The translations under genes and the position numbers were made by a program. From the NCBI GenBank assembly GCA_965261595.1, contig CBDHDG010000007.1, forward strand, positions 448,001-512,000: a stretch of 64,000 nucleotides of DNA, given 5' to 3'. Source of the DNA: a bacterium (GTDB lineage Bacteria > UBA8248 > JACPRG01 > G963555815). Position 1 is the first letter of the stretch. Each line of letters starts with the position of its first letter. The notes below the pieces were generated by a model. It had not been told where the DNA came from and searched no databases. It saw only the letters and a program-made list of their open reading frames with translations. Positions 13,351 to 54,035 of this stretch are shown one piece after another.

Positions 13351-13416
13351 TCCCCCGCTCTAGGGTTTTGTTGGACACTCGATTGATCCATGATTCATGG
13401 AGAAAGGGGTGTCGCG

Positions 13417-14708: not shown

Positions 14709-14754
14709 GGTCGAATACCCTCACCCGAGTGTCCAATAACCCAGGGGCGGTCCA

Positions 14755-36112: not shown

Positions 36113-36352
36113 ATGTTTGGACTTGGACTGCAGGAACTGCTGATCTTGGTTGTGATTTTTGGGCTTTTTGCTTTAGTCACTTGGCCATTTTGGAAAATCT
36201 TCTCAAGAGCGGGGTTTTCTGGATGGCTGAGTTTAACTCAACTAGTTCCCATTCTTAACGTTGTTGTATCATTCTACTTTGCTTTTGCTAAATGGCCTAT
36301 TCAAGAAGAACTGAATCTGATGAAGCAGATGTCGAGGGAAAACGAAGGTTAG
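36113..36352 (+). CDS. Small low-GC membrane protein
   Basis: Strong RBS AAGGAG; PFWKIFSRAGFSGWLSL..VPILN..FAFAKWP. Confidence 0.7.
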   Translation: MFGLGLQELLILVVIFGLFALVTWPFWKIFSRAGFSGWLSLTQLVPILNVVVSFYFAFAKWPIQEELNLMKQMSRENEG

Positions 36353-36698
36353 TTGAAAATTGACGGGGCTACCTCCGTTTAGAGCAGTTGAGTCTTGCAA
36401 AACAGAACGTCGGATCACCGAAGCGAAGTAGATTCTGCATGAACGCGGTACGGCAATAGGGGGGCGAGACAGCCATCATAACGGTTTGGAAAGATCTCCT
36501 TATCTGCCTAACCGGGATTTCTCACCAATCCGAAGAGCCGAGTCGGCGATCTTCCAGGAAACTCATTGAGGGACAATGACTTGCATGAACAGAGGGTCTT
36601 GGCGAGTCACTGACAGGGTGTGCCTGAGGAAGGGGAGGGATCGAACGGCTCGAAGCTCGTTGGACTGTTTGTTGGTGATTCAACCTGCGAGCGTTTGT

Positions 36699-36785
36699 TG
36701 GGGGCGGGTACAGAGCCCCGCCCCTACATCTGAGGTGCCCTTTGGGAGTTTTGTGTGTAGGGGCCGGGGCTCCGTACCCGCCCCT
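36699..36785. repeat. Inverted pair of GTAG-type REP palindromes
   Basis: GGGGCGGGTACAGAGCCCCGCCCCTAC ... GTAGGGGCCGGGGCTCCGTACCCGCCCC. Confidence 0.7.
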
Positions 36786-36886
36786 GTTCGTCCACCTGCT
36801 GGAGCAACAGCGTTGCATCGATGGTGCCCTGCAGTCTCAGCGAACACTTTGTGAGAAATGCGGGCTAAATTGAAACGGAGGATATC

Positions 36887-38479
36887 GTGCCCGATTACGA
36901 TGTGATTGTCGTGGGCGCCGGACACGCCGGGATGATGACCGCAACCTATCTGGCCCGGACGGGACTGGACGTCCTGATCATGGAAAAGGGTCTGGAAGTC
37001 GGCGGGGACATGAACACCGAGTCCTTCACCCACCCCGGCTACTGGCATAACCTCCATTCCTATTACCACCTCGGCGTGGACCGGCTGGCCCCCTTCCGGG
37101 ACCTGGAGTTCGAGCGGTTCCACGCCCGCTACGCAACGCCCGATCCCCAAAACGCCCTTCTCCTGGAAGACGGCCGGACGATCATCGGCTCCCTGGCCGC
37201 GGAGAAGACGGCCGCCTCGGTGGGGGCCGTCTCGGCGGAGGACGGAGAGACGGTCCGGGACGTGAACCGCCGCCTGGGCGGGTTTCTCAAAGAGCAGGTC
37301 GTACCCGCCCTCTACGGCGCGCCCCGAAACGGGGGGGGGGGGGACGGCGGCGCCGATCCGCTCGGCGGGTTGCCGGACTCTCGGGAAGCCCGGGAGATCA
37401 TGGAGTTCAAGGATCTGACGGCGGCAGCGGCGGCGGAGCGCCTCTTCAAAGACCCGGCCGTTCAGGCCTTCTACCTCAATCAACTTCCCGTCATTCGCGG
37501 ACTCCGAACCGATGTCCCCGGTCTCGGCCACGTTGTTCTGCTGGCCGTCGCCCAGGCGGAGACGGCGATGCTCCTCGTCGACGGCGGGCCGCACGTCATG
37601 GCCCACGCCCTCTGGCGGGCGATGCTGGCCGCGAAGGGGAAGGTGAAGACCGTTTGCGATTATCGGAAGATCATCGTCGAGAACGGCCGGGCGGTCGGCG
37701 TCGAGCTGGCCGACGGGACGCGCCTGGGCGCGCGGAAATGTGTCATCGGCGCCCTCGGGCTGGAGGAAATCTTCCTGGATCTCGTGGGGAGGGAGAACCT
37801 GCCCCCGGGGCTGGCCGACGGGATCGGCGGCTTCCATTCCTCCAACTTCGCCGTCCTGAGCGTCCACCTGGCGATTCGGGGATCGATCTCTTTCCGCGGC
37901 CGGCACGCCGAGCTGGAGCGGACGTTCAAGGTGGACCTGGGTCCGCAAACCCCGGAGGGCTGGGCCGACCTCTGGAGTGCCGTGGACGGGGGAAGGCCGC
38001 CCGATCCCCTCTGCCTCTCGGCGAGCATCCCGACGGCGTACGATTCTCTTCACGCCCCCGACGGCGGAAGCACGGCCGTGCTATGGGTGCCCGTCCCGTA
38101 CCGGATCGGAGACCAAGGCGTGGACGGCTGGGACGACGTGAAGGACGCGTTCCGGGACGCCTGCATGGCGCGGTTCAACGAAGTCGCGGACCTGTCCCAG
38201 GCGACCATTCTGGACGCGGAGGTCATCTCCCCGGCCGACATCGACCGGGGCGTGGGCAACCTGGACAAGGGCGCGATCCACATGGGGGAGATCATCTACC
38301 GCCGGGATGAGTACTTTTCCAGCGTCCCCGACCTGGCGAGCTACCGGACGCCCATCGAGGGCCTCTACTACTGCGGGTCGTGCACCCATCCGGGAGGCGG
38401 CGTCATCGGGGCGACGGCGTTCCACACCGTGAACGTCATCGCCGATGATTTGGGGATTGAGAAGTGGTGGGCTCTGTAG
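36887..38479 (+). CDS. Phytoene-desaturase (CrtI)-like FAD oxidoreductase
   Basis: VVGAGHAG, APDGGSTA, YRTPIEGLYYCGSCTHPGGGV. Confidence 0.88.
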   Translation: MPDYDVIVVGAGHAGMMTATYLARTGLDVLIMEKGLEVGGDMNTESFTHPGYWHNLHSYYHLGVDRLAPFRDLEFERFHARYATPDPQNALLLEDGRTIIGSLAAEKTAASVGAVSAEDGETVRDVNRRLGGFLKEQVVPALYGAPRNGGGGDGGADPLGGLPDSREAREIMEFKDLTAAAAAERLFKDPAVQAFYLNQLPVIRGLRTDVPGLGHVVLLAVAQAETAMLLVDGGPHVMAHALWRAMLAAKGKVKTVCDYRKIIVENGRAVGVELADGTRLGARKCVIGALGLEEIFLDLVGRENLPPGLADGIGGFHSSNFAVLSVHLAIRGSISFRGRHAELERTFKVDLGPQTPEGWADLWSAVDGGRPPDPLCLSASIPTAYDSLHAPDGGSTAVLWVPVPYRIGDQGVDGWDDVKDAFRDACMARFNEVADLSQATILDAEVISPADIDRGVGNLDKGAIHMGEIIYRRDEYFSSVPDLASYRTPIEGLYYCGSCTHPGGGVIGATAFHTVNVIADDLGIEKWWAL

Positions 38480-38540
38480 GAGCGGGTCCAAGCCTGCCCT
38501 CTGCGACGGCAGGGGGTCCCCGCCCGCTGTTTTGCTTTCG

Positions 38541-38597
38541 TGGCGGGCAAGATGCCCGCCCCACCTCGGTGGGTAGGCCGGGCATCCTGCCCGGCAG
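38541..38597. repeat. REP-like palindrome pair, same family as in the deaminase array
   Basis: GGCGGGCAAGATGCCCGCCCCAC ... GGTAGGCCGGGCATCCTGCCCGGC. Confidence 0.7.
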
Positions 38598-38717
38598 GAA
38601 TTGATTCATTGCGGAGGCGCCGGCGGACAAGCCGCCAGTGGCACACGGTCCATCGGAAAGAGGTGAAGGGGCGCCGCCGCTTGGTAGTTCGCACCCGCCC
38701 GCCACAGGAGAGAGATT

Positions 38718-40343
38718 TTGGCGCTGAAGGCCGAATACGACGCGATCATCATCGGGGCGGGGCACAACGGCCTGATCCTGGCGGGGTACATGGCCCGGGC
38801 GGGGCTGGAAGTGGTCGTCCTGGAACGATATCTTGAACAAGGCGGGGGCCTCGACACGCACGTGGACCCGCACCACCCCGGCTTCCTCCACAACATGCAC
38901 TCTTTCTTCCACCGCAACCTCACGAACCTCCCCTGGTGGCGGGACCTCCAGGTCGGAGAGTACGACGTGGAATACCTCTATCCGGAAGTGGGCTGCGGGA
39001 TGATGATGGAAGGAGAGCGGTGCCTCCTGCTCTACTCGGACGTGGAAAAAACCCTGAAATCCATCGCGAAGCTCTCGCCCCGCGACGCGGAGACCTGGAA
39101 GGACGTGTATCGCCGGTGGCAAAACGTTGTCCGGGACGTGAGCGAGCCGATGACCTACTCCCCCCCGATCGGCTGGGAAAAGGTAAAAAGCCTCGCGAAA
39201 GGGAGCGAATCGGGCCGTGAGTTCCTCGCCTTCGCCGACAAGTCGCCCGACGAGGTGGCGTCCGAGCTGTTCGAGAGCGACGCGGTGCGCGCGATCCTTC
39301 TCTATCTTGCCGACATCCGGGGTTACGACTCCCTGTCCAAGCGCCTGGGATGGATCATCCCCCACATGATGGCCACGCGCGTTGGCCCCCAGATGGCGCG
39401 CGGCACCTCTCACCGCCTGGCGCATGCCCTGGACGCCAGCGCGCTTTCCGCCGGAGCGGACGTGGTTGAGGGCAGGGAGGTCACGCGGATCCTGGTCGAG
39501 GGGAGCCGCGCGACGGGCGTCGAGCTGAAAAACGGCGAGCGGATCCGCGCCAAACGGTTCATCGCCACCAACACCGGGCCGGCCCAGACCTTCGTGGACC
39601 TCATCGAGCCCGGCCACGTCGATCCCAAGCTGGCCGAGCGGACCAAGGGCTACGAGTACGGCCCCGTCGGTCCCATCTTCTCCATCAACCTGGCCCTGAA
39701 CGAGCGGCCCGTTTACACCGCCGAGAAGCATGAGCCCGACGCGGCGCGGAGTTTCCTGACCGTCGTGGGCCTGGACGCTCCGGAGGACATGCACGAGCTG
39801 CACCGGGCGCATCAGGAGCGCCGACTGCCCAAGAAGCTTTTCTTCAACGGGACGACGCCCACGGTGTTCGACCCCAGCAAGGCGCCCCCCGGCAAGCACA
39901 CGGCCTTCATGTGGCAGTTGGTTCCTTACCACATCGATAACAATCCGCGGAAGTGGCGGGAGATTCATGAAGAGTTTCTGGACGCCCTCCACGACCGGTG
40001 GGCGCATTTCGCCCCGAACCTCAAGAAGCCCGGCGTTATCGTCAACAAGTTCGGCCAGATGCCGCTCGACATCGAGAGCCACGTCACCACCATGGTGGGC
40101 GGAGACTGGATGCACGGCAACATGAGCGAGAAGCAGTTCTACGACCGGCGGCCCCTGCCCGAGCTCTCGGGTTACCGGACGCCCATCGAGGGACTTTTCC
40201 TGTGCGGCTCCTGCACGCATCCGGGCGGGAACATCACGGGCGGGCCGGGTTACAATTCCGCCAAGGCCATCGCCGAAGATTTGGGCATGGACCCATGGTG
40301 GAAGCCCTTGAACTTCGAGGAGCGCCTGAACGGCCTGAAGTAA
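38718..40343 (+). CDS. Phytoene-desaturase (CrtI)-like FAD oxidoreductase
   Basis: IIGAGHNGL, DPSKAPPGKHTA, YRTPIEGLFLCGSCTHPGG. Confidence 0.9.
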   Translation: MALKAEYDAIIIGAGHNGLILAGYMARAGLEVVVLERYLEQGGGLDTHVDPHHPGFLHNMHSFFHRNLTNLPWWRDLQVGEYDVEYLYPEVGCGMMMEGERCLLLYSDVEKTLKSIAKLSPRDAETWKDVYRRWQNVVRDVSEPMTYSPPIGWEKVKSLAKGSESGREFLAFADKSPDEVASELFESDAVRAILLYLADIRGYDSLSKRLGWIIPHMMATRVGPQMARGTSHRLAHALDASALSAGADVVEGREVTRILVEGSRATGVELKNGERIRAKRFIATNTGPAQTFVDLIEPGHVDPKLAERTKGYEYGPVGPIFSINLALNERPVYTAEKHEPDAARSFLTVVGLDAPEDMHELHRAHQERRLPKKLFFNGTTPTVFDPSKAPPGKHTAFMWQLVPYHIDNNPRKWREIHEEFLDALHDRWAHFAPNLKKPGVIVNKFGQMPLDIESHVTTMVGGDWMHGNMSEKQFYDRRPLPELSGYRTPIEGLFLCGSCTHPGGNITGGPGYNSAKAIAEDLGMDPWWKPLNFEERLNGLK

Positions 40344-40406
40344 TTCAGCCGATGCCGGCGGACGGACCCGCGCGGGCGCCGCGATGAACGCGGATGAGGA
40401 GGGACC

Positions 40407-41861
40407 ATGGAACGCGCCGGATTGGCGGCAATGACCGATCTGAGAGACTGGCTCGACGTGGTGGAGGATCTGGGCGAGCTGAAGACGGTCCGGGGGGCGC
40501 ACTGGAACCTGGAGATCGGCGCCCTCTCCGAGGCCAATTACAAACAATCGAAGAGCCCGGCGCTGCTGTTCGATGAGATCCCGGATCACCCCCCGGGCTT
40601 CCGCGTCCTGACGGGCGCGTCGGGCTCCCCCCCCCGCCTGGGCGTCGCGCTGCGCATGGGAAGCGGTTTCACCAACGCGGAGCTTGTCAAGGCCCTCCGC
40701 GGCAAGCCCATCGAGTGGGAGAGCACTGCCCCGAACTTCCCCCCCGAGGTTCTGCCGGACGGCCCCGTGAAAGAGAACGTCCTCCTGGGCGGCCAGGTGG
40801 ACCTGTCGCGCTTCCCCACGCCTTTCTGGCACAAGCACGACGGGGGACGCTACATCGGGACGGGGGACGCCGTCCTCATCAAAGACCCCGAAACCGGCGT
40901 CGTCAACCTGGGCGCCTACCGGGTGATGGTTCTCGACGAGCGCCACGTGTCCGTGATGATCATCCCGGGCAAGCACGGGATGCAGTACGCCCGAAAATGG
41001 TTCGCCCGCGGGGAGCGGTGCCCGGTGGCCATCTCGGTCGGCCACGACCCCCTCCTGGCCATCCTTTTGGGCATAGAGATCCCCACCGGCGTGAGCGAGC
41101 TCAACTACGCGGGGGCGATCATCGGGGGCCGATATCCGGTGGTGGAGGGGGAGGTGACGGGACTCCCTATCCCGGCCGCGAGCGAGATCGTTCTGGAAGG
41201 CTGGCTGGAAGAGGGGAAGACGACGACCGAAGGGCCTTACGGCGAATGGCACGGGTACTACTCGGGCGGCGAATATCCGGCCTTCCGGGTCGAAGTCGAG
41301 GCCGTTCTCCACCGCGACGATCCCATCCTCCTGGGCTCCCCGCCCGGAAAGCCGCCCCACGATTACTCCTACTTCCGGTCGGTGATGAAGTCGGCGCTGA
41401 TCTTCGACTCCCTGGTCAAGGCCGGTGTTCCGGCGGTCCAGGGCGTGTGGTGCGACGAGGCGGGCGGGGGCCGGCTTTGGATCAACGTCTCCATCAAGCA
41501 GCAGTTCCTGGGTCACGCGCGAATGGCCGGGTTCGTCGCCTCGCAATGCCACGCCGGGGCGTATATGGGGCGGTACGTCGTGGTGGTGGACGAGGACATC
41601 GATCCCACCGACATCCATGAAGTCATCTGGGCCATGTGCACCCGCTCCGATCCGGCCGGCGATATCGAGATCATCCGCCGGGCCTGGGGCAGCCCCGCCG
41701 ACCCGCTGAACCCCGACAAGAAGACGCCGAAAAGCTCGCGGGGCATCATCGACGCCTGCCGGCCCTACGAGTGGATGGACGAATTCCCCCGCGTCGCCGC
41801 CGCCGACCCGGAGGACCTCCAGGCGATACGGGAAAAGTTTCCGGAGGTTTTCGGGGATTAG
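40407..41861 (+). CDS. UbiD-family prFMN-dependent (de)carboxylase
   Basis: DGGRYIGT, NLGAYRV, IPAASEIVLEG, EGPYGEWHGYY, VVVDEDID..WAMCTR. Confidence 0.93.
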   Translation: MERAGLAAMTDLRDWLDVVEDLGELKTVRGAHWNLEIGALSEANYKQSKSPALLFDEIPDHPPGFRVLTGASGSPPRLGVALRMGSGFTNAELVKALRGKPIEWESTAPNFPPEVLPDGPVKENVLLGGQVDLSRFPTPFWHKHDGGRYIGTGDAVLIKDPETGVVNLGAYRVMVLDERHVSVMIIPGKHGMQYARKWFARGERCPVAISVGHDPLLAILLGIEIPTGVSELNYAGAIIGGRYPVVEGEVTGLPIPAASEIVLEGWLEEGKTTTEGPYGEWHGYYSGGEYPAFRVEVEAVLHRDDPILLGSPPGKPPHDYSYFRSVMKSALIFDSLVKAGVPAVQGVWCDEAGGGRLWINVSIKQQFLGHARMAGFVASQCHAGAYMGRYVVVVDEDIDPTDIHEVIWAMCTRSDPAGDIEIIRRAWGSPADPLNPDKKTPKSSRGIIDACRPYEWMDEFPRVAAADPEDLQAIREKFPEVFGD

Positions 41862-41964
41862 GCCGGTTCACCGGAATGACGGATCGGGCGCGCCGTTTCC
41901 GGCCGCCGTTCCGAATGAGGGGACGCCGACCTTCGCGGGGAACCCGCCCGGGCCGATCATCCTT

Positions 41965-43188
41965 GTGATCGCGTCACTCCTCCCCCCCGGACTGCAAGGC
42001 TCGGGACTGAAGGCGCTCGCGTGGGGGTCGGCGGGGGCCGCGGCCGGGGTGCTTCTGTGGCTCATCCCGACGATCCGGATCTCGGGATTGGGTCCCGCCT
42101 GGGACATGATGATCGTCCTGGCCGCGCGCCAACCCCGGGTTTTTTCCAGCGTGGGACAGGGACCGTTTCCGTCCGCGGCCGTCCTCGCGGCCCTGGGCCT
42201 CTGGGCGGCGTTACGGATCGGCCGGACATCCTGGCGGCCGTGGCGGCCCGCTTTGGCGCTCCTCGTCGCGGCCGGGTGCGGGGTCGGCGTCTCGCTGGTG
42301 GCCTTCCCGAAGCTGCTGACGTTGCTTTCGGAGGCGGGACTGCGCGGGCTTGCCGCCCAGGTCGTCGCGGCGCTCCCCCTCAGCGTGATCCTCGTGAGCG
42401 TCTGGACCCGGGAGGCGGTCCCCGGACGCCGGGTTGCGGCGGCCTTCATCGGATGGCAGGCGCTGTTTCAGGTCTTCCAGATCTACCCGGTTGCCGGGAC
42501 GCAGATGGTCTATGCGACGCCCCTCGTCGTCCTCCTGGCCGGCGCGCTTACGTATGCGCTGCTGGATCGACGCAAGCTGCCCGAGAAAAACCGGCGGCCT
42601 CTCAATCTTCCGGTGTCCCGCTCGATCGCCGAGCTGGTGTTCCCGGCGGCGACGCTCGCCTTCCTGCTGCCGTTCCTGGGCCTGGGGGTGATTCCCCTGG
42701 CGAAGGAGCGCCAAAAGGGAATCCCCCTGTCCGCGCCGTCCGCCGCGGGGGTCCGGTTTCAATCGGAGATCGCCCCCAAATTGGAGGCCCTGATCCGGTA
42801 TCTCCGGAGACGCACGGCGCCGGGCGAGCCGATTTTCACCATGCCGGGAATGTCGAGCATCTACATCTGGACGGGAAGGCCGAGCGTCACCCGCTATAAC
42901 GCCACGACCTGGGGTTTGCTGACGCCGGAGATGCAGGAGAGCATCGTCGAGAGGCTGCCGCGCGTCCGCTTTCTGGTGGTGAACCGCAAGTCGCTTTTCT
43001 GGAAGAGCACGGTTCAGCCTGTACGGCTCGCCGGAGAGGGATCGACCCGGTTGCGGGACCGGGTTTTCCGGGACTACGCCCCTCTTCCGCCCGGAGACTG
43101 GCTCGGACCGGGGGCTTCGGACGAAGACCCGGATTTTGAAATCTGGGTTCGGCGAAAAGGCGCGCCGGCCGGACCGCCGCCGTCCTGA
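41965..43188 (+). CDS. Polytopic membrane protein with GT-C/ArnT-like C-terminus, possibly 5'-truncated
   Basis: Several TM segments followed by YLRRRTAPGEPIF....IYIWTGRPS.TRY; weak start. Confidence 0.5.
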   Translation: MIASLLPPGLQGSGLKALAWGSAGAAAGVLLWLIPTIRISGLGPAWDMMIVLAARQPRVFSSVGQGPFPSAAVLAALGLWAALRIGRTSWRPWRPALALLVAAGCGVGVSLVAFPKLLTLLSEAGLRGLAAQVVAALPLSVILVSVWTREAVPGRRVAAAFIGWQALFQVFQIYPVAGTQMVYATPLVVLLAGALTYALLDRRKLPEKNRRPLNLPVSRSIAELVFPAATLAFLLPFLGLGVIPLAKERQKGIPLSAPSAAGVRFQSEIAPKLEALIRYLRRRTAPGEPIFTMPGMSSIYIWTGRPSVTRYNATTWGLLTPEMQESIVERLPRVRFLVVNRKSLFWKSTVQPVRLAGEGSTRLRDRVFRDYAPLPPGDWLGPGASDEDPDFEIWVRRKGAPAGPPPS

Positions 43189-43225
43189 CCCGAGGTTTTC
43201 GCAAAGAGAAGAGTCTACGGGGAAA

Positions 43226-43723
43226 TCACGCGGTTGGATCGGGGGGCGCGGCGATGTCCCAGTCGCCGAAGTCCTTGAAGACGGCTTCGGCCCTTTCCTC
43301 CAGGACCCCGCGGATGACCTTCACATTCATGCCCGTCAGCCCGACGAGCCGTTCGATGGTGTAGTCCCCCAGGTCATACCGCCCGTTGGAGCAGCGCCGC
43401 AGGGCCTCGGGTCCCGCGCCGATGACGACGGTTCCGACGCCGGAGTAGATGGCGGCGCCGGCGCACATGGGACAGGGGTCGCAGTTGGCGTACAGGACGC
43501 AGCCTCGCATGTCCCCCGAGCGCATCTTCTTCGCCGCCTCCCGGATCGCCATCATCTCCGCGTGGCACGTGGGATCCTTCAGGGAGATGCCGACGCTTTT
43601 CCCCCGGCCGAGGACCTCGCCGTCCTTGACGATGACGCCCCCGTAAGGCAGGTGCCCCTCCTTCACGCCGTCCTCCGCTTCCTGAATGGCCAGGGCCATG
43701 AATTTTTCGTGATCGCCGCTCAC
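43226..43723 (-). CDS. Zinc nucleoside deaminase, array member D1
   Basis: PYGGVIV, DPTCHAE, CDPCPMC. Confidence 0.92.
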   Translation of the reverse strand: MSGDHEKFMALAIQEAEDGVKEGHLPYGGVIVKDGEVLGRGKSVGISLKDPTCHAEMMAIREAAKKMRSGDMRGCVLYANCDPCPMCAGAAIYSGVGTVVIGAGPEALRRCSNGRYDLGDYTIERLVGLTGMNVKVIRGVLEERAEAVFKDFGDWDIAAPPDPTA

Positions 43724-43870
43724 GGGGATGCTCCTGTCTTCGCTGTCCGATGTTTTGGAACCGGATAGATCCGCGTGGGTGTCATGTTTCTCATGCGTCC
43801 TTAAGTCTTTGGGCCGGGCAGGATGCCCGGCCTACCGATCGGGTTGCGAGTTGGCGCCGGGCAAGATGCC
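43724..43870 (-). repeat. Repeated deaminase leader plus REP palindromes, copy 1
   Basis: Shares + strand TGTTTTGGAACCGG..GATCCG..GGGTGTCATGTTTCTCAT..CTTTGGGCCGGGCA with 44425 and 45177. Confidence 0.85.
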
Positions 43871-43923
43871 CGGCCTGCCGGCCGGTGGACAAGCGGTGTT
43901 TTCAAAACAGGCAGGGCGAGGCG

Positions 43924-44424
43924 CTATTCCGACCGGAGGACATTGGGCGAGGCGTCGCCCCAGTCCTTGTACTCCCGGAAGACGGCCTCGGCTTCCTCTT
44001 CCAGCACCCCGTTGACGACCTCCAGGTCCAGGCCGATCAGCTCGACGACGCGCTCGATGGTGTAATCGTTCATGTCGTAAATCGCTCCGGATTCGCGCTT
44101 GAGGGCGGCCGGGCTCGCGCCGATGACGATGGTCCCCGCCCCGGACCAAAGCGTGGCGCCGGCGCACATGGGACAGGGGTGGCACGAGGTGTAGAGGGTG
44201 CACCCGGTCAATTTTGGGGTCTTGAGGTTGGCCGCCGCGTCGCGGATGGCCGAGGTCTCCGCGTGGGCCGTGGGGTCTCCGGTGGAGTTGACGATGTTGC
44301 GGCCCCGGCCCACGACCTCTCCGTCCCGGACGATGACCGACCCGAAGGGCCGCTCTCCGCTCCGGACGGCGGCGCGGGATTCCTCGATGGCCAGGGCCAT
44401 GAACTTCTCGTGGTCGACGCTCAT
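43924..44424 (-). CDS. Zinc nucleoside deaminase, array member D2
   Basis: PFGSVIV, DPTAHAE, CHPCPMC. Confidence 0.92.
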   Translation of the reverse strand: MSVDHEKFMALAIEESRAAVRSGERPFGSVIVRDGEVVGRGRNIVNSTGDPTAHAETSAIRDAAANLKTPKLTGCTLYTSCHPCPMCAGATLWSGAGTIVIGASPAALKRESGAIYDMNDYTIERVVELIGLDLEVVNGVLEEEAEAVFREYKDWGDASPNVLRSE

Positions 44425-44707
44425 GGGGATTCTCCTGTTTCCGGTGGTCGATGTTTTGGAACCGGGTGGATCCGAAGGGGTGTCATGTTTCTCATACGCC
44501 CTTACACTTTGGGCCGGGCAGGATGCCCGGCCTACCGAATCGGGGTGCGAGTTGGCGCCGGGCAGGATGCCCGGCCTACCGGGCCGTGTACGGGCTGACT
44601 CTTCCAATATCCGGTAGGGCGGGCAGCGGGTCGGTTGACCCCTTGCCCGCCCGGATACGACGCGCGTAAGCCTTTCACGATCATTGATAAATTGCGCGGA
44701 CAGCACC
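44425..44707 (-). repeat. Repeated deaminase leader plus REP palindromes, copy 2
   Basis: Same leader; also shares GCCCGGATACGACGCGCGTAAG and GCGCGGACAGCACCCTA with copy 3. Confidence 0.85.
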
Positions 44708-45176
44708 CTATCTCCTTGGACCAGCCGAATTCTTCCAGGACTTTCTTGGCCTCGGTCTCCAAAATCCCCCGGATGACCTCGAGTGTCATGTTCATCTGTT
44801 CGCTGAGGCCTTCGGCCGTGTAAGTTCTCGGGGTTCGATTGGAGATGCGCGCCAGGGCGGCGGAGCGGGCCCCTACGACGAGGGTGTCGATGCCGGAAAA
44901 GAGTATGGCGCCGCAGCACATCGGGCAGGGGTCGCACGAGGTGTAGAGGGTGCAGCCCTTCAGGGACAGGCTTTTCAGGTTCGCCGCCGCGTCGCGAATG
45001 GCCATCACCTCCGCGTGCGCCGTCGGGTCCCCGGTCGAGCGGGGATTGGCGTATGCGCGCCCGACGACCTCCCCGTCCCGGACGACGACGGACCCGAAGG
45101 GCCGGTCGCCCGCCCGGAGCCCGGCCCGCGACTCCTCGACGGCCAGGGCCATGAACTTCTCGTGGTCGACGCTCAT
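44532..45176 (-). CDS. Zinc nucleoside deaminase, array member D3 (homologous stop at 44708-44710 out of frame)
   Basis: PFGSVVV, DPTAHAE, CDPCPMC. Confidence 0.88.
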   Translation of the reverse strand: MSVDHEKFMALAVEESRAGLRAGDRPFGSVVVRDGEVVGRAYANPRSTGDPTAHAEVMAIRDAAANLKSLSLKGCTLYTSCDPCPMCCGAILFSGIDTLVVGARSAALARISNRTPRTYTAEGLSEQMNMTLEVIRGILETEAKKVLEEFGWSKEIGCCPRNLSMIVKGLRASYPGGQGVNRPAARPTGYWKSQPVHGPVGRASCPAPTRTPIR

Positions 45177-45351
45177 GGGGATTCTCCTGTCTTCGCTGCC
45201 CGATGTCTTGGAACCGGATAGATCCGAGGGGGTGTCATGTTTCTCATGCGTCCTTAAGTCTTTGGGCCGGGCAAGATGCCCGCCCGGATACGACGCGCGT
45301 AAGTCTTTCACGGCCATCTGTAGAGCGTCGCCTCCCAGCGCGGACAGCACC
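45177..45351 (-). repeat. Repeated deaminase leader, copy 3
   Basis: Same leader and partial REP. Confidence 0.85.
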
Positions 45352-45819
45352 CTACAATGTGGACCAGTCGAATTTCGCCAGGACCTCCTCGGCCTCGGTT
45401 TGCAAAACCCCCCGGATGACCTCGAGCTTCATGTGCATCTGCCCGGCGAGGTTCTCGGCGGAGTAGGTCCTCGGGGATTGGCCCCGGATCTCCGCCAGTT
45501 TCGCGGAGCGCGCGCCTATGACCAGCCGCTCGATGCCGGAAAACAGCGTCGCCCCGCAGCACATCGGGCAGGGGTCGCACGAGGTGTAGAGGGTGCACTC
45601 CTTCCAGTCGGAACCCTTCAGGTTGGCTGAAGCGTCGCGAACGGCGGACGTTTCCGCGTGGGTCGTCGGGTCCCCGGAGGAGTTGACGGTGTTGTAGGCC
45701 CGGCCGACGACCTCCCCGTTGCGGACGATGACCGAGCCGAAAGGCTGCTCTCCCTTCTGTAGTCCCTTGCGCGCCTCCTCGATAGCCATCGCCAGGAATT
45801 TTTCGTGCCCGTCGCTCAT
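45352..45819 (-). CDS. Zinc nucleoside deaminase, array member D4
   Basis: PFGSVIV, DPTTHAE, CDPCPMC. Confidence 0.92.
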   Translation of the reverse strand: MSDGHEKFLAMAIEEARKGLQKGEQPFGSVIVRNGEVVGRAYNTVNSSGDPTTHAETSAVRDASANLKGSDWKECTLYTSCDPCPMCCGATLFSGIERLVIGARSAKLAEIRGQSPRTYSAENLAGQMHMKLEVIRGVLQTEAEEVLAKFDWSTL

Positions 45820-45834
45820 GAAAATCGCCCTCCC

Positions 45835-46851
45835 TTATGGGTTGGATGCGAGCCCATCGGCCAAAAGCCGCAGGGCCTTTTTCCTCTCTTCCGCCGTCCC
45901 GCGCAAGGCCAGGACGGGGACCTCGAGACCCGCATCGATGAACTCCGTGATTCGGTCCGCCGCCATCTCGGGCGTTCCGGTGACGCTGTACGCGTGGACG
46001 ACCTCCTCGGGGATGAGCCGCCGGATCGCCTCCCGGTCCTCTTTAACGAAGGCGTCGTTGATGGCGTCCAGGTCCAGTTTCGCCCCGCTGACTTCGTGGC
46101 TCGCCTTGAGGGCCGGGTTCCGGAGGAGGTAGGCGAGACCGGCCTGACTGGCCGCAAGCGCCTCTTCATACGTCTCGAAGATCGAGGTCACGATCAGCCC
46201 CGCGACCAGGAAGCCGTTCCCGGCGCCGCCCCCCCCGCCGCCGTCCCGCTTCCTTCGGCCCTTTTCGACCTGCTCCAGCACCCACTGAATGTAAGGCGCG
46301 GAGACCCCGGCGGAAAGGACGACGCCGTCGGCCGCCTCCCCGGCGAGCCGACACATCTTCGGTCCCACGGCCGCCAGGTAGATGGGAATTCTCGCCTCCG
46401 GGAGGTCGAAATCGATGTGAGCGCCGTAAAGGTTCAGCGTCTCGCCGCGAAACTCGACGCGCTGCCGGCCGGCGTCCCAGAGCCGCCGGGTGGCGGTGAT
46501 CATCTCTCGCATGGAGGCGAGGGGTTTCTTGGGCGACAGACCCATCTCGGCCATGACGTTCGGGTTGCCCGTCCCGGCGCACAGCGCGATCCGGCCCGGT
46601 GCGCACTCGGCCAGGGTGGCGACGCCCATGGCCCAGTAGAGGGGGTGGGCGACGTAGGGGCTGAGGGCGGTGGGGACGACCCGCACGTGTTTCGTCGCGC
46701 CGAGGAAGGCGACGGAGGTCGAGACCGCGTCCCGGTAGCCCAGGTGCTGGTCCGCCCAGACGGAGTGGAACCCCGCCGCGTCGGCGACTTGGCACATCTC
46801 CACCATGTCCGAAATGGGAATGCGGCCGTCGAGGTCGATGCCGAGTTTCAT
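45835..46851 (-). CDS. Luciferase-like (LLM; Mer-like) oxidoreductase
   Basis: AAGFHSVWADQH, PIYLAAVGPKMCRLAGEAADGVVL. Confidence 0.9.
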   Translation of the reverse strand: MKLGIDLDGRIPISDMVEMCQVADAAGFHSVWADQHLGYRDAVSTSVAFLGATKHVRVVPTALSPYVAHPLYWAMGVATLAECAPGRIALCAGTGNPNVMAEMGLSPKKPLASMREMITATRRLWDAGRQRVEFRGETLNLYGAHIDFDLPEARIPIYLAAVGPKMCRLAGEAADGVVLSAGVSAPYIQWVLEQVEKGRRKRDGGGGGGAGNGFLVAGLIVTSIFETYEEALAASQAGLAYLLRNPALKASHEVSGAKLDLDAINDAFVKEDREAIRRLIPEEVVHAYSVTGTPEMAADRITEFIDAGLEVPVLALRGTAEERKKALRLLADGLASNP

Positions 46852-46959
46852 AAACCGCCCTGATTGGAATCGGGGTGAGCGCCGTCGCTTAGTGTAACGC
46901 CCTTCTTCCAATCGCGAAAGGACGGGTTTTCGGGTGGGTCCGTCGCGGTGGAACCCCGT

Positions 46960-47445
46960 TCATCCCCGTTGTCCGCTCATGCGCCAGGTCATCAACGCGC
47001 CGAGGGTGAGGAAGGCGATTTGTCTGAGGGCTTCCGTCGGCCGCCCTTTAACGGATATTTGGGGCGTCCAGGAAATCAGCCCTTCCAAAGACGGATTGAG
47101 CTCCCGGGCTGAAAAGCGAATGATTTGCGCGTCCCGCAGGAAATCCAATCCGGACGCGGAAACCGATCCTCGCACGATGGGGATGATCGGCCTTTTGTCG
47201 GACGCGAATTCGACCTCCTGACGAACAAGGTCCGATTGGGACCCCTGATTCGAGATCAACGCCAGGACGCACCCGGACTCCAGAATCCGCTCGCGGACTA
47301 TTTTCGGAAGGGATCGGGCCGCTTTCAGGGGCCGGTCCTCATGCGCAATGAGGGGTCTTTGCCCGCCCAATTGAAGCTGTGACGCGATGAACCGAACGAC
47401 GTCGATGTCACCCGGCCTATTACTGATGAAGATCGTAAACGGCAT
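46960..47445 (-). CDS. TIR-domain protein with hydrophobic C-terminal tail
   Basis: IFISN, ERILESGCVLALIS, SDLVRQEVEFA (catalytic Glu position), IIPIV. Confidence 0.72.
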   Translation of the reverse strand: MPFTIFISNRPGDIDVVRFIASQLQLGGQRPLIAHEDRPLKAARSLPKIVRERILESGCVLALISNQGSQSDLVRQEVEFASDKRPIIPIVRGSVSASGLDFLRDAQIIRFSARELNPSLEGLISWTPQISVKGRPTEALRQIAFLTLGALMTWRMSGQRG

Positions 47446-47599
47446 TGCGCCCTCTCCGCGCGAACTGAACGAACGGATGCCAAAGTTTATCCATTTACAT
47501 TTCGGCGGAAAAGGTAAAGGACTTAATCGTTGATTTTTGCCGCCCCTTGCCGCGGCCCCGGGGTTTTGGCGTAACGGCCGTGGAGATGGTAGAATCGGA

Positions 47600-47839
47600 A
47601 TCGGCCTGAACATCAAGAATGAAGCGACCTGCCGTTTGGCCGAGGAGTTCGTGCGTTTGACCGGCGAGACCAAGACCAAGGCGATGGAGAAACGTTTGGA
47701 TCGCCAGTTCCAAGGGCGGAACCGCGCGGGCGTTGCCGAGTGGTTGATGGAAATCGGTCGGCGCTGCGCGTCCCAGCCGACGCTCGATACCTGGACGCCC
47801 GAAGGAATTCTTTACGACAAGCATGGTTTGCCCAAATGA
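47600..47839 (+). pseudogene. vapB: VapB antitoxin (Rv0623-like), apparent start-codon mutation
   Basis: (ATC)GLNIKNEATCRLAEEFVRLTGETKT...ILYDKHGLPK. Confidence 0.75.
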
Positions 47840-48142: not shown

Positions 48143-48195
48143 GCCGGAGTGGACCGCCCCTGGGTTATTGGACACTCGGGTGAGGGTATTCGACC

Positions 48196-49104
48196 TCATG
48201 CGGCCTCCGCAACTTGAGCGAGTTTTTCCTGCCTTGCCTGGGCCGGCGTTCGGTAGCCGTAGCCCTCGAGAATCCAATGATGGTTGTACAGGTTCTTGAA
48301 CTCAAGCAGCGCCCACCGCAGTTCCTCTACGGTGGCGAAAGAGCGCACCCACAGGAGATTCTCCTTCAAGATGCGGATAAACCACTCACAGTAGCCATTT
48401 CCCTCGGGCGCCCGCACGAAGCTGGGCGAACTGGTCATGCCCAGGTAGGCGATCTCCCGCTGAAAGTCATCGGACAGATAGGCGGGGCCGTGGTCGTGAC
48501 GAACTTTAAGCCCCTCGGCGACATCCGCCTCCAAGCCGGCGAAGCGCTCGGCGACCCCCTGCCGGATCGGCTCCAGGGCCTCGAAGCGGTTGCCGCTCTT
48601 GGCCGCATGGATCCCCACGCAGTCCACCGAGCAGTGATCCACCGCCACGAACACCGAGGCCATCCCCTCCTCGGTGGTCACCGTCGTCGTCATGTCCGTG
48701 CCCCACATTCGGTCGGGCCGCTCGGTGCGGATGGTCCCGTTGTGGGCCTTGGGACCTCGGGGTTTGCCCACCCGGTGGGGGGCCTGAAGCCCCGCCTCCC
48801 GCATCAGGCGACGCACCCGCTCCTTGCTGGTGCGGATGCCCGCGAAGCGCAGCCTCGCCCACACCTTGCGGTAGCCCTCGCCATGGAAGGGAGAGTCCTC
48901 CAGGACCTGCCGGATGTGGCCGAGGAGTTCCGCATCGGTGCACGGGCCCACAGGGCCGCGCTTATTGGGCGTGGGGCGTTCATGAACGGGGACCGCCTCT
49001 CGCCGCCGTTGCGCGTAGACCGTGGAGCGCGCCAAGCCCCAAAGGGCGCACACCCGCTTCAGGCCGTAGGCTCTGCCCGTGGAGGTGAAGCGGGCCTGAC
49101 TCAT
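48196..49104 (-). CDS. IS3-family OrfB DDE transposase
   Basis: Intact DDE motif. Confidence 0.9.
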   Translation of the reverse strand: MSQARFTSTGRAYGLKRVCALWGLARSTVYAQRRREAVPVHERPTPNKRGPVGPCTDAELLGHIRQVLEDSPFHGEGYRKVWARLRFAGIRTSKERVRRLMREAGLQAPHRVGKPRGPKAHNGTIRTERPDRMWGTDMTTTVTTEEGMASVFVAVDHCSVDCVGIHAAKSGNRFEALEPIRQGVAERFAGLEADVAEGLKVRHDHGPAYLSDDFQREIAYLGMTSSPSFVRAPEGNGYCEWFIRILKENLLWVRSFATVEELRWALLEFKNLYNHHWILEGYGYRTPAQARQEKLAQVAEAA

Positions 49105-49487
49105 CGCCTCCACCTCCTGCCGGCTAAAGGGCGGCCGGCCTCCAGGCGGTCGATCTTCTCCCGCAGGACCTCGCCCTCCATCGTGAGTTCGCCCACCTTG
49201 GCCTTGAGCCGGGCGTTCTCCTCGTCCCGCTCATCCGCCGGGCGGGCTTTGAGCGCCGCCTCGCCCCCGCGAAGGAACGCCTCGCGCCAGGCGGAAAGCC
49301 GAGCCGCTGTCGTGCCCAACTCGCGGCAGAGCGTCTCCAGGCTCTCGCCCCGCAAAAGACGCAGGACCGCCTCCCGCTTGCGCTGGCAGGAGAACCGACC
49401 CCGCTCACTGCGATGCCCTGGGGCCTTGGCTCCGTTCGCCCTGCGGGCGCCCTCCGCCAAAGCCCCCTCTTGCTTTTGTTCGTTCAT
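49101..49487 (-). CDS. IS3-family OrfA
   Basis: Same as the other copies. Confidence 0.9.
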   Translation of the reverse strand: MNEQKQEGALAEGARRANGAKAPGHRSERGRFSCQRKREAVLRLLRGESLETLCRELGTTAARLSAWREAFLRGGEAALKARPADERDEENARLKAKVGELTMEGEVLREKIDRLEAGRPLAGRRWRR

Positions 49488-49669
49488 CGCGACACCCCTT
49501 TCTCCATGAATCATGGATCAATCGAGTGTCCAACAAAACCCTAGAGCGGGGGACTCATTCATAGTCACATATTCGAGCAATTGTCTGGAGATATAGAGAT
49601 TTTGCAAAAGCAAGCAATGTCGTTGACTGGACTTACCCCGGTTTCGTGGAGAGTTAAGCACTTGGGTTT

Positions 49670-50518: not shown

Positions 50519-50676
50519 GAACCCGTAGATCCGGACGGGATCGAATCGGTCTCCCGAGCAAACCAGGCCGCGGCTTTTGCTAAGATCTCCCGCTCCTGGC
50601 GGAGCTGTCGTCCCCCGCTCTAGGGTTTTGTTGGACACTCGATTGATCCATGATTCATGGAGAAAGGGGTGTCGCG

Positions 50677-51063
50677 ATGAACGAACAAAAGCAAGAGGGG
50701 GCTTTGGCGGAGGGCGCCCGCAGGGCGAACGGAGCCAAGGCCCCAGGGCATCGCAGTGAGCGGGGTCGGTTCTCCTGCCAGCGCAAGCGGGAGGCGGTCC
50801 TGCGTCTTTTGCGGGGCGAGAGCCTGGAGACGCTCTGCCGCGAGTTGGGCACGACAGCGGCTCGGCTTTCCGCCTGGCGCGAGGCGTTCCTTCGCGGGGG
50901 CGAGGCGGCGCTCAAAGCCCGCCCGGCGGATGAGCGGGCCGAGGAGAACGCCCGGCTCAAGGCCAAGGTGGGCGAACTCACGATGGAGGGCGAGGTCCTG
51001 CGGGAGAAGATCGACCGCCTGGAGGCCGGCCGCCCTTTAGCCGGCAGGAGGTGGAGGCGATGA
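50677..51063 (+). CDS. IS3-family OrfA
   Basis: Same as the other copies. Confidence 0.9.
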   Translation: MNEQKQEGALAEGARRANGAKAPGHRSERGRFSCQRKREAVLRLLRGESLETLCRELGTTAARLSAWREAFLRGGEAALKARPADERAEENARLKAKVGELTMEGEVLREKIDRLEAGRPLAGRRWRR

Positions 51064-51968
51064 GTCAGGCCCGCTTCACCTCCACGGGCAGAGCCTACGG
51101 CCTGAAGCGGGTGTGCGCCCTTTGGGGCTTGGCGCGCTCCACGGTCTACGCGCAACGGCGGCGAGAGGCGGTCCCCGTTCATGAACGCCCCACGCCCAAT
51201 AAGCGCGGCCCTGTGGGCCCGTGCACCGATGCGGAACTCCTCGGCCACATCCGGCAGGTCCTGAAGGACTCTCCCTTCCATGGCGAGGGCTACCGCAAGG
51301 TGTGGGCGAGGCTGCGCTTCGCGGGCATCCGCACCAGCAAGGAGCGGGTGCGTCGCCTGATGCGGGAGGCGGGGCTTCAGGCCCCCCACCGGGTGGGCAA
51401 ACCCCGAGGTCCCAAGGCCCACAACGGGACCATCCGCACCGAGCGGCCCGACCGAATGTGGGGCACGGACATGACGACGACGGTGACCACCGAGGAGGGG
51501 ATGGCCTCGGTGTTCGTGGCGGTGGATCACTGCTCGGTGGACTGCGTGGGGATCCATGCGGCCAAGAGCGGCAACCGCTTCGAGGCCCTGGAGCCGATCC
51601 GGCAGGGGGTCGCCGAGCGCTTCGCCGGCTTGGAGGCGGACGTCGCCGAGGGGCTTAAAGTTCGTCACGACCACGGCCCCGCCTATCTGTCCGATGACTT
51701 TCAGCGGGAGATCGCCTACCTGGGCATGACCAGTTCGCCCAGCTTCGTGCGGGCGCCCGAGGGAAATGGCTACTGTGAGTGGTTTATCCGCATCTTGAAG
51801 GAGAATCTCCTGTGGGTGCGCTCTTTCGCCACCGTAGAGGAACTGCGGTGGGCGCTGCTTGAGTTCAAGAACCTGTACAACCATCATTGGATTCTCGAGG
51901 GCTACGGCTACCGAACGCCGGCCCAGGCAAGGCAGGAAAAACTCGCTCAAGTTGCGGAGGCCGCATGA
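51060..51968 (+). CDS. IS3-family OrfB DDE transposase
   Basis: Intact DDE motif; E to K variant QVLKDSP. Confidence 0.9.
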   Translation: MSQARFTSTGRAYGLKRVCALWGLARSTVYAQRRREAVPVHERPTPNKRGPVGPCTDAELLGHIRQVLKDSPFHGEGYRKVWARLRFAGIRTSKERVRRLMREAGLQAPHRVGKPRGPKAHNGTIRTERPDRMWGTDMTTTVTTEEGMASVFVAVDHCSVDCVGIHAAKSGNRFEALEPIRQGVAERFAGLEADVAEGLKVRHDHGPAYLSDDFQREIAYLGMTSSPSFVRAPEGNGYCEWFIRILKENLLWVRSFATVEELRWALLEFKNLYNHHWILEGYGYRTPAQARQEKLAQVAEAA

Positions 51969-53125
51969 GGTCGAATACCCTCACCCGAGTGTCCAATAAC
52001 CCAGGGGCGGTCCAGTCGGTTCTCGCGGCGAAGTCGGCGCAACTCCTCCCGCTCATCGCTCGTGAGCCCGTCTTTGCGACGCCCCTCGTCAACGTCGGCT
52101 TGATGGGCCCAGGTGCGGATCGTCTGCGCCGAGGGCTCGAACTCGTGCGCCAGCGCCTCGGGCGTGCGTCCCGCCCGGACCAACTCTACCATCTGGCAGC
52201 GGAACTCCATTGGATAGCGTGGGTGAGTCTGTGGCATCGTGAACACCTCCTTTACCCCCAAATCATCAGGTGTCCACCAAACCGGGTCAACTCCAGACGA
52301 GCGGCAGCGAAAGCGGTTTCGTGTGGATATAAGTAAGCACGAATTTTGTTCACCGAAGAACGAGGCCGAATTAGAGGGCTATACCCTCTATGTTTATACC
52401 CCAACGATGATGGTTTGTGAGAAGCTGAGAGCCATTTGTCAGCAGATGCGCGAATATAGAAAGTTTATGAGAAGTAGCAGCCAGTCTGCCAGGCCAAGGG
52501 ATTTTTTTGACATCTACTATATGGTCGAGCGTTTGGGTGTAAACGTTGAAGAGTCTTTGTCGATGAAGATCTTGAACGCAATGTTCGTGGCCAAAAGGGT
52601 GCCATTAAAATTGCTCGGCCAAATCGGAGATACTCGGGAGTATCATCGCCTAGGTTTCTCGGCGTTTGAATTGACCGTAGGACCTGAGGTGGATTTAGAG
52701 GAGTTTGATTTTTATTTTGATTACGTTTTGGAGCTTGTTGGGAGGTTAAAGTCCTTTTGGAAAGAATAATCTCCACCTCTCGGAATACTCTGTTTCCTTC
52801 ATGTTATGTGCCAGAAAGAAATCAAACCGAAATTCCTTTTTCCGCAAGAGGCGCAAGGCGGATTCCGGGTACACATCGGCACGGTCCAGATAAAAACCGA
52901 TGGCCTGCTCGTATGGATAAATGTAATCCAATTTCTTGAGGATTGCTGAGAGGCGGTTGATGGAAATCATTTTCTCTTTGGCCGCTCGAAATGCTTTCAA
53001 GACTTCGAATATACCGCTGGAATACTCCCGCCTAACGGTGATATCGATCAATGTGCGTTCGAGGTTGGTAACACGTATATGGACCGCCCCTGGGTTATTG
53101 GACACTCGGGTGAGGGTATTCGACC

Positions 53126-54035
53126 TCATGCGGCCTCCGCAACTTGAGCGAGTTTTTCCTGCCTTGCCTGGGCCGGCGTTCGGTAGCCGTAGCCCTCGAG
53201 AATCCAATGATGGTTGTACAGGTTCTTGAACTCAAGCAGCGCCCACCGCAGTTCCTCTACGGTGGCGAAAGAGCGCACCCACAGGAGATTCTCCTTCAAG
53301 ATGCGGATAAACCACTCACAGTAGCCATTTCCCTCGGGCGCCCGCACGAAGCTGGGCGAACTGGTCATGCCCAGGTAGGCGATCTCCCGCTGAAAGTCAT
53401 CGGACAGATAGGCGGGGCCGTGGTCGTGACGAACTTTAAGCCCCTCGGCGACGTCCGCCTCCAAGCCGGCGAAGCGCTCGGCGACCCCCTGCCGGATCGG
53501 CTCCAGGGCCTCGAAGCGGTTGCCGCTCTTGGCCGCATGGATCCCCACGCAGTCCACCGAGCAGTGATCCACCGCCACGAACACCGAGGCCACCCCCTCC
53601 TCGGTGGTCACCGTCGTCGTCATGTCCGTGCCCCACATTCGGTCGGGCCGCTCGGTGCGGATGGTCCCGTTGTGGGCCTTGGGACCTCGGGGTTTGCCCA
53701 CCCGGTGGGGGGCCTGAAGCCCCGCCTCCCGCATCAGGCGACGCACCCGCTCCTTGCTGGTGCGGATGCCCGCGAAGCGCAGCCTCGCCCACACCTTGCG
53801 GTAGCCCTCGCCATGGAAGGGAGAGTCCTCCAGGACCTGCCGGATGTGGCCGAGGAGTTCCGCATCGGTGCACGGGCCCACAGGGCCGCGCTTATTGGGC
53901 GTGGGGCGTTCATGAACGGGGACCGCCTCTCGCCGCCGTTGCGCGTAGACCGTGGAGCGCGCCAAGCCCCAAAAGGGCGCACACCCGCTTCAGGCCGTAG
54001 GCTCTGCCCGTGGAGGTGAAGCGGGCCTGACTCAT
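53126..54035 (-). pseudogene. IS-A OrfB, frameshifted near its 5' end
   Basis: CCCCAAAAGGG versus CCCCAAAGGG in copy 3. Confidence 0.85.

Follow-up and report, generated by a model that had tools for sequence, protein, structure and literature searches.

The 64,000-nucleotide stretch of bacterial DNA analyzed here (hereafter, the window) harbors four co-oriented minus-strand open reading frames (ORFs) that encode small zinc deaminases of the cytidine deaminase (CDA) fold. These genes, denoted D1 to D4 (positions 43226-45819), are located behind a gene for a luciferase-like (LLM-class) oxidoreductase. D1, D2, and D3 are each preceded by hairpins of the repetitive extragenic palindrome (REP) type and, behind them, by a leader of ~88 nt (L1, L2, and L3, respectively) that ends in AGGAG, 8 nt, and the start codon. 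D4 has no leader and starts 15 nt past the stop codon of the LLM gene. We consider it probable that this locus is an old deaminase operon with a young spacer module that has been homogenized by gene conversion and that carries each of the Shine-Dalgarno sequences. A sequence-only reading of the same DNA had proposed an undescribed system, namely a cassette-like, REP-bounded amplification unit with a leader under selection. Its description of four HAE/PCxxC deaminase genes, of REP hairpins and similar leaders before D1, D2, and D3, and of the leader coordinates (43724-43830, 44425-44535, and 45177-45285) was borne out, while the system that it proposed was not supported.

The genome of the window (G000; contigs C1-C7) was compared to 40 others, such that 41 genomes were considered in the leader and protein searches. 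These included a congener (G001), two genomes from a sister genus of the same family (G004 and G006), and a genome from genus g3 (G003). Two metagenome contigs (L012 and L013) and an excerpt of G006 (L014; G006:C1:4709500-4718500) were also examined. The source names of close relatives indicate that the family is Nitrospinota.

Age of the array and divergence of its leaders

In pairwise comparisons, the coding sequences of D1 to D4 share 60-74% nucleotide and 45-66% amino acid identity, and synonymous divergence among them (dS; NG86) is 0.64-0.77. The leader cores (87-88 nt), when compared to each other, differ by 5, 13, and 15 substitutions (83-94% identity). The leaders are more alike than the proteins that they precede, as had been judged by eye in the sequence-only reading, and are far more alike than the coding sequences are at synonymous sites. 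In a sliding profile, identity is 80-100% from the leader to ~40 nt inside the gene and 40-70% thereafter.

The divergence of the genes appears to be ancient. Protein searches returned 13 matches in the genome of the window, 11 in its congener, 10 in G006, 7 in G004, and 6 in G003, and 0-3 in the other 36 genomes. The same LLM gene precedes deaminases in all four of these relatives, and in the sister genus it is followed by tandem arrays of four deaminases (G006:C1:4712442-4714616 and G004:C114:18090-20137). Phylogenetic reconstruction placed D1 in a clade with its congeneric counterpart (D1g1), G006_D, and G004_D (support of 100/100), D2 with G006_C and G004_C (82/82), and D4 with D4g1, G006_B, and G004_B (91/91). 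D3 falls into a D3/D4 group, as does the first gene in the sister genus, with neither placed more precisely. These observations suggest that the array is an old, vertically inherited operon and that its paralogues predate the split of the two genera. Ratios of nonsynonymous to synonymous divergence (dN/dS) between orthologues (0.10 for D1, 0.19 and 0.25 for D2, 0.29 for D3, and 0.25 for D4) show that each paralogue is under purifying selection.

Copy number varies in the family. The congener does not encode D3, and G003 encodes one deaminase behind the LLM gene, on a short contig. In G006, a piece of a deaminase C-terminus (GVVRGVLQDEAEKVLEEYDRSKLQ) persists in frame in the spacer that separates the second deaminase gene from the third (L014, reverse strand, ~4905-5000), as a trace of a paralogue that was lost or recombined. 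In metagenome contig L013, an ORF beginning MSRKGFTAEQIIHKLRQ and transposase-like by appearance occupies the place of D1 past D2 on the reverse strand. Gene gain and loss occur in the array, but slowly. The suggestion of an expandable deaminase repertoire is thus weakly supported insofar as copy number varies, and fails insofar as it implied recent or cassette-like amplification.

The leaders have a much narrower distribution than the genes. Spacers in the arrays of G006 and G004 range from ~20 to ~170 nt and yielded neither a significant leader match (nhmmer E ≥ 0.4) nor a REP. Full-length leader matches were confined to 2 of the 41 genomes, those of G000 and its congener, and a pattern scan recovered only the contig of G001 among genome contigs and two contigs among metagenome contigs. 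Within the genome of the window, six of six copies of the leader core lie inside the array or its duplicate on contig C5 (BLAST and nhmmer profile). No full-length copy was detected at an unrelated locus by either method, indicating that the leader is not a dispersed element of the miniature inverted-repeat transposable element (MITE) kind. The possibility, raised in the sequence-only reading, that the leader occurs genome-wide independently of deaminases was therefore not borne out. This distribution suggests that the leader is young and genus-specific.

Comparison of orthologous leaders provides a measure of how fast they change. Differences amount to 5/87 positions for L1 (G000 vs. G001), 14/87 for L2, and 12-13 of 87-89 for L3 (G000 vs. 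L013). The adjoining genes differ at 6.1%, 13.3%, and 13.0% of their third codon positions, respectively (dS of 0.106, 0.209, and 0.174), and orthologues of the nearby UbiD-family decarboxylase gene and of the LLM gene have dS values of 0.137 and 0.098. The leader thus appears to change about as fast as silent sites, with no selection detectable. Moreover, Jukes-Cantor distances between paralogous leaders (0.059-0.196) span the same range as those between orthologous leaders (0.060, 0.181, and 0.152), whereas dS between paralogous coding sequences (0.5-0.77) exceeds that between orthologous ones (0.09-0.21) by three- to sevenfold.

Structural and coding signals were likewise sought in the leaders. 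A consensus fold computed with RNAalifold comprises 25 pairs, none of which (0/25) is compensatory, albeit among only six distinct sequences and thus with low power. Fold stability relative to shuffled sequences (z-scores of -0.04, +1.69, +2.04, +0.17, and +0.32) was higher than expected for none of the leaders and lower for two. A search of Rfam 15 over 42000-47500 (E ≤ 10) returned 14 weak matches, all below gathering score and all on REP hairpins or unrelated spots, such that no Rfam family is assigned to the leader. Across copies, 27/88 columns vary and 61/88 are invariant. The variable columns are distributed over codon positions as 7/6/5 and 5/7/6 in the two open frames, neither of which is coding-like, and the longest stretch without variation is within expectation (p = 0.35). 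In the D3-D2 spacer of L013, the leader is reduced to its final ~35 nt (its last third; nhmmer E of 0.002), yet D2 is intact at 166 codons.

Metagenome contig L012 is identical to the window over 45160-45322, a span that includes L3, and its LLM gene differs at 5 of ~900 positions. The zero differences in the leader were considered as a sign of constraint and rejected as such, given that the LLM gene is nearly unchanged too; D4 is the outlier, with 22 differences. Together with its 3' flank (45323-45819), D4 holds 22/27 of the differences between L012 and the window. Several of the L012 variants of D4 are also present in L013 and in a contig from an RNA library, which suggests allelic exchange between lineages.

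Proposed homogenization of the spacers

If selection does not keep the leaders alike, exchange between copies might. In a quartet comprising L1 and L3 of the window, L1 of the congener, and L3 of L013, four informative sites group the leaders by genome and none by position, while the adjoining coding sequences of the same quartet have 0 sites that group by genome vs. 143 that group by position. The grouping of L1 and L3 by genome rather than by position points to concerted evolution. We suggest that this process is partial, ongoing, and confined to the spacers and gene starts, and that measurable purifying selection is not the cause of the alikeness of the leaders. Duplicated tuf genes and rRNA operons are textbook cases of concerted evolution by gene conversion. 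As expected of such a process, within-genome copies in the array are more alike than orthologous ones (L1/L3; 4 vs. 0 sites) and patterns are mosaic; here, however, the homogenized portion comprises the spacer and ~40 nt of the adjoining gene, the rest of which remains divergent.

The hairpins in the spacers have a separate and ordinary source. Five REP-like hairpins are distributed over the three spacers (Table 1). The REP, a 19-nt GC-rich palindrome (GCCGGGCATCYTGCCCGGC), has 44 exact copies in the genome and 80 copies with two or fewer substitutions on six of the seven contigs; of the 80, 10 lie in the two copies of the array and 70 elsewhere. Four REPs (1196915, 1197055, 1197553, and 1197589) flank a gene for a Y1 transposase (C7:1197215-1197496; PF01797, 47.3 bits) that resembles those of IS200/IS605 and REP-associated tyrosine transposases (RAYT), and the same hairpin is present in related genomes. 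The hairpins are therefore members of an ordinary genome-wide REP/RAYT family. They fit the picture of REP/REPIN elements that accompany a RAYT, as drawn by Bertels and Rainey (PMC3116915, PMC3337134). That picture covers only the hairpins, in that the ~88-nt leader lies outside the dispersed element and REP matches elsewhere stop before the leader is reached.

These observations can be joined in the following scheme. The LLM gene and D4-D3-D2-D1 would form one transcription unit that is read as a polycistronic mRNA. Enlargement of the three internal spacers, by insertion of the genome's own REPs and of a module of ~88 nt, would be specific to this genus. Behind the REP hairpins, the module would most likely serve as an unstructured purine- and C-rich stretch that supplies the ribosome-binding site. 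Its three copies would descend from one recent ancestor and be kept alike via gene conversion or unequal recombination, with divergent selection on the enzymes ending the exchange tracts after a few codons of each gene. Translational coupling may be added by an upstream ORF of 24 codons (MRNMTPPRIYPVPRHRAAKTGESP in L3), the stop codon of which overlaps each start (ATGA/GTGA).

Contigs from RNA libraries are consistent with a polycistronic mRNA. Contigs of two such libraries bridge the 3' end of D4 into L3 (45244-45426 and 45161-45330) and that of D2 into the REPs (43791-43977). No sigma-70-like promoter was identified in 43000-47200, other promoter types being outside the scan, and the sole terminator-like site found in the same interval in a search for intrinsic terminators is on the opposite strand, inside D1. 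In run X5, joints that skip D2 or D3 (43918 to 44628 and 44588 to 45264) have a shorter side of 21-22 letters that lies inside the REPs, and were not used as evidence of deletion.

Several observations weigh against the proposed scheme. For L1 and L2, four sites support grouping by position and none by genome, indicating that homogenization is not ongoing among all copies, and the RNA-library contigs are of low depth (~3-5), such that carry-over of DNA could account for them. The stop of exchange ~40 nt into the genes is explained by inference only, through divergent selection on the enzymes. The variable columns of the leader show mild clustering (12 adjacent pairs; p = 0.04 by permutation, which is marginal), and invariant blocks, among them CATGACACCC and CCGGTTCCAA, could mark functional cores. 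Lastly, the leader set comprises seven copies (six distinct) from four sources, such that tests of constraint and covariation have little power. In the remaining quartet, L2/L3, the informative sites are mixed (1/2/1).

If the scheme holds, the locus is an ordinary, though uncharacterized, operon of paralogues, and neither a new regulatory system nor a new cassette system need be invoked. Non-coding DNA that is far better conserved than the genes that it flanks can arise without a new system; here, the pattern would be due to a spacer that recently spread and was homogenized within a long-established array of paralogues. Comparison of orthologous to paralogous divergence is a simple test that separates such readings.

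Alternative explanations for the leaders

The leader might instead be a selected cis-regulatory element that places the genes under common control, be it a riboswitch, an RNA that masks the Shine-Dalgarno sequence, a site for a small RNA or a protein, or an operator at the palindrome CGGATCTATCCG. That palindrome is perfect in six of seven leader copies, and a UUCC:GGAG helix predicted by RNAalifold would mask the Shine-Dalgarno sequence. The restriction of all six genomic copies to the array, the 61/88 invariant columns, and the mild clustering of the variable ones (p = 0.04) would also be expected of such an element. Nevertheless, we regard this explanation as unlikely. Orthologous leaders diverge like third codon positions, none of the 25 predicted pairs is compensatory, the leaders fold no better than shuffled sequences and in part worse, and none matches an Rfam family. 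Furthermore, the sister genus has orthologous arrays without the element, most of it is deleted before D2 in L013, and D4 lacks it. The same divergence, the lack of covariation and of a stable fold, and the grouping of L1 and L3 by genome do not uphold the earlier proposal that the leader is under selection.

To an equal and similarly small degree, we entertain the possibility that the functional core is the 24-codon upstream ORF, the translation of which would couple or tune that of each deaminase gene downstream of the REP hairpins. This ORF is uninterrupted in all seven copies and in each of them terminates at the start codon of the deaminase gene; in five of the seven, its ATG has an AAGGA-like motif 3 nt upstream. 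The leaders also have unusually little structure (z up to +2.0). However, L2 of the congener lacks both the first ATG and the Shine-Dalgarno-like motif, the latter of which is also weakened in L2 of the window. The absence of an excess of third-position changes (7/6/5) indicates that the peptide is not conserved, and each deaminase gene has a well-spaced AGGAG of its own. In addition, uninterrupted frames of 24 codons are not uncommon given the GC content (by a rough estimate), and the TGA is present simply because all four proteins begin with Met-Ser.

Other coding readings of the leader were rejected. The frame of the deaminases is open through the leader, yet an N-terminal extension would have no start codon (ATG, GTG, or TTG) to begin from within the leader, L2 of the congener excepted, and no coding pattern was evident in the substitutions. 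Plus-strand antisense ORFs starting with MFWNRIDPRGCHV are present in each leader; judged by eye, their differences are non-synonymous and they run into the REPs, and they were treated as spurious. The leader bears a loose resemblance, seen by eye only, to the 5' ends of the deaminase genes (ATGAG and GAGAA..CATG). L2 of the congener was considered as a simple two-part hybrid of L3 and L2 that formed after the loss of D3; the pattern is patchy rather than two-part, and such a hybrid is not claimed.

Slightly less probable than either the cis-regulatory element or the coupling ORF is a joint claim in which the module is a newly evolved, genus-specific unit of translational control that was copied before three of the four paralogues for a joint response. 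The unit would consist of an unstructured landing pad and the ORF that overlaps stop and start codons, possibly with the UUCC:GGAG mask or a protein site at CGGAT-N2-ATCCG, and gene conversion would be the means of its spread and uniformity.

Recruitment of the genes one by one as mobile cassettes, whether integron-like or MITE-borne and bounded by REPs, is highly improbable. Repeats do flank each gene, copy number does vary (no D3 in the congener and one deaminase behind the LLM gene in G003), and a C-terminal remnant of a deaminase does persist in the G006 spacer. As in integron cassettes with attC sites, conserved non-coding repeats alternate with co-oriented short genes. The array differs from them in that its genes are paralogues of one family with orthologous arrays that are free of repeats, and in that the repeat is upstream and holds the ribosome-binding site. 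The paralogues keep orthologous order in the repeat-free genus, the leader occurs nowhere else in the genome, and the REPs belong to a dispersed family with 70 of 80 copies outside the arrays. No recombinase was found beside the array among the ORFs of 41500-47500 and the neighbors scanned with Pfam; an integrase, as would mark an integron cassette array, was not seen there, although integron integrases were not specifically searched for and the IntI model was not run. The presence of orthologues of D1, D2, and D4 in leader-free and REP-free arrays, and the ordinary nature of the REPs, likewise do not uphold the proposal of a cassette-like, REP-bounded amplification unit.

Plain recent tandem duplication of whole units, with residual likeness of the leaders, might be suggested by the tandem, co-oriented arrangement and by the similar 3' flanks of D4 and D3, and is refuted by the dS of 0.5-0.77 between paralogous coding sequences vs. 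leader distances of 0.06-0.20 and by paralogues that predate the split of the genera.

The encoded enzymes and their genomic context

Features of the operon and its spacers are compiled in Table 1. The start of the LLM gene is ambiguous, being either TTG at 46911 or a start near 46851 (MKLGIDL), and its product matches the F420/LLM families of NCBIfam at scores below their cut-offs. The D3-D2 spacer features a long palindromic hairpin with its left arm at 44644-44657, and the REP-containing block at 43856-43923 in the D2-D1 spacer also matches seven further places in the genome. The 3' flanks of D4 and D3 have two blocks in common, and these flank blocks occur four times in the genome, all in the two copies of the array.

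Table 1. Genes and spacers of the deaminase array, in the order of transcription (window coordinates).
Feature	Positions	Strand	Description
LLM-class (luciferase-like, F420/FMN-type) oxidoreductase	45835-46911	-	PF00296, E 4.1e-52; first gene of the putative operon
D4, CDA-fold zinc deaminase	45352-45819	-	155 aa; PF00383, E 1.5e-26
D4-D3 spacer	45177-45351	-	3' flank block; hybrid REP 45266-45284; L3 45177-45265 with AGGAG Shine-Dalgarno sequence
Putative upstream ORF in L3	45173-45247	-	24 codons; TGA overlaps ATG of D3; read from sequence
D3, CDA-fold deaminase	44532-45176	-	214 aa as assembled; PF00383, E 1.4e-24
D3-D2 spacer	44425-44708	-	Palindromic hairpin; REPs 44557-44575 and 44513-44531; L2 44425-44512; upstream ORF 44421-44495
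D2, CDA-fold deaminase	43924-44424	-	166 aa; PF00383, E 9.6e-27
D2-D1 spacer	43724-43923	-	REP block 43856-43923 (REP 43856-43874); REP 43813-43831; L1 43724-43812; upstream ORF 43720-43794
D1, CDA-fold deaminase	43226-43723	-	165 aa; GTG start; PF00383, E 3.9e-25; last gene of the array

As assembled, D3 has a 59-residue tail that runs through the REPs due to one extra base at 44711, which removes a stop codon; without this base, D3 encodes 155 aa and ends at 44708. The base is absent from the contigs of two other runs (an RNA library at a depth of 3.9 and a run of unrecorded type at a depth of 18 of 18), and the D3 orthologue in L013 ends normally (SKE and stop). Strain variation or an assembly indel may account for the extra base.

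All four array proteins score 86-93 bits against PF00383 (gathering cut-off of 25), and the residues H54, A55, and E56 (HAE) and P83, C84, and C87 (PCxxC) are invariant in 8/8 aligned array proteins. Automatic annotations of relatives carry the name TadA, with which the array proteins have fold and motifs in common. This identity was ruled out: the four proteins score 79.5, 78.0, 84.6, and 84.8 bits (the last being D4) against the NCBIfam TadA model (NF008113), below its cut-off of 150, and the true TadA of the genome is encoded by a separate gene (C7:834275-834730; 168.2 bits). When D2 alone was the query, the top match in the PDB was the guanine deaminase of Bacillus subtilis (1wkq; E of 9e-24), and when a profile was used, it was the plant guanosine deaminase (7dbf; E of 2.5e-33), with values ranging to 1e-31 and TadA structures nearly equal in score (E of 3e-30). 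The B. subtilis (1wkq/1tiy) and plant enzymes are similar in size to the array proteins (~155-165 aa) and have the HAE and PCxxC zinc site in common with them. The alignment to these structures covers only query positions 3-110 (approximately the first 105-110 residues), such that the C-terminal part of the array proteins is unaligned. In the guanine/guanosine deaminase branch, the C-terminal part determines substrate choice.

By these comparisons, D1 to D4 appear to belong to the guanine/guanosine deaminase and TadA-like branch of the CDA fold, and their probable role is metabolic, in the deamination of nucleobases or related N-heterocycles. The latter assignment follows from their not being TadA, from their fixed location behind the LLM gene in three genera, from the neighbors of the G006 array, and from the name that NCBI gives to proteins of close relatives ("nucleoside deaminase [Nitrospinota bacterium]"). 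In G006, a protein with an Amidohydro_2 domain and a molybdopterin-binding subunit of the xanthine dehydrogenase type are encoded on the same strand just upstream of the LLM-deaminase operon (L014 6558-7475 and 7577-8917, both minus), which hints at N-heterocycle catabolism.

A literature search found no paper that pairs Nitrospinota with nucleoside deaminase, and among the matches listed for tandem or operonic guanine/cytidine deaminase paralogues, none is about such an array as judged from titles and the openings of abstracts. One family keeps an operon with an LLM oxidoreductase and up to four specialized small deaminases. This arrangement hints at an uncharacterized route for deamination of nucleobases or similar N-heterocycles, which, if confirmed, could matter for nitrogen scavenging.

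Additional CDA-fold paralogues are encoded outside of the array, at 9096-9536 of the window (plus strand) and at G000:C1:73537-73986, C5:675407-880, and C6:298100-402. With the array counted once, a search with D2 identified nine distinct loci at E ≤ 1e-15, among them TadA.

Neighbors of the array that were scanned with Pfam were the LLM gene, the UbiD gene, and a gene for a protein with a TIR domain, in addition to a membrane ORF without a Pfam match. The TIR-domain ORF (239 aa; 46960-47679, minus strand; PF13676, E of 2.4e-9) is just upstream of the LLM gene and beside a copy of an insertion sequence (IS). On the other side, the array is adjoined by the gene for the UbiD-family decarboxylase (40407-41861, plus strand) and by a 549-aa ORF (38718-40341) that, read by eye, has an N-terminal dinucleotide-binding motif of the GxGxxG type. 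Both have 96-97% nucleotide identity to their counterparts in the congener.

The whole array is contained in a segment of ~24 kb (24091-48149) that recurs at G000:C5:128160-155608 with 99.5-99.95% identity. The two copies differ in IS insertions, and 36244-42512 is lost in the copy on C5. Either a genuine segmental duplication or the haplotype of a second strain could account for this duplicate. Copies of an IS of ~1404 bp are located in the window at 13350-14754, 48150-49553, 50610-52000+, 53077-54487, and 60941-62344, and each is overlapped by ~190 other near-identical megablast matches (>99%) that are distributed over all seven contigs. The genome of the window is 6.17 Mb, as compared to ~3.7 Mb in its congener.

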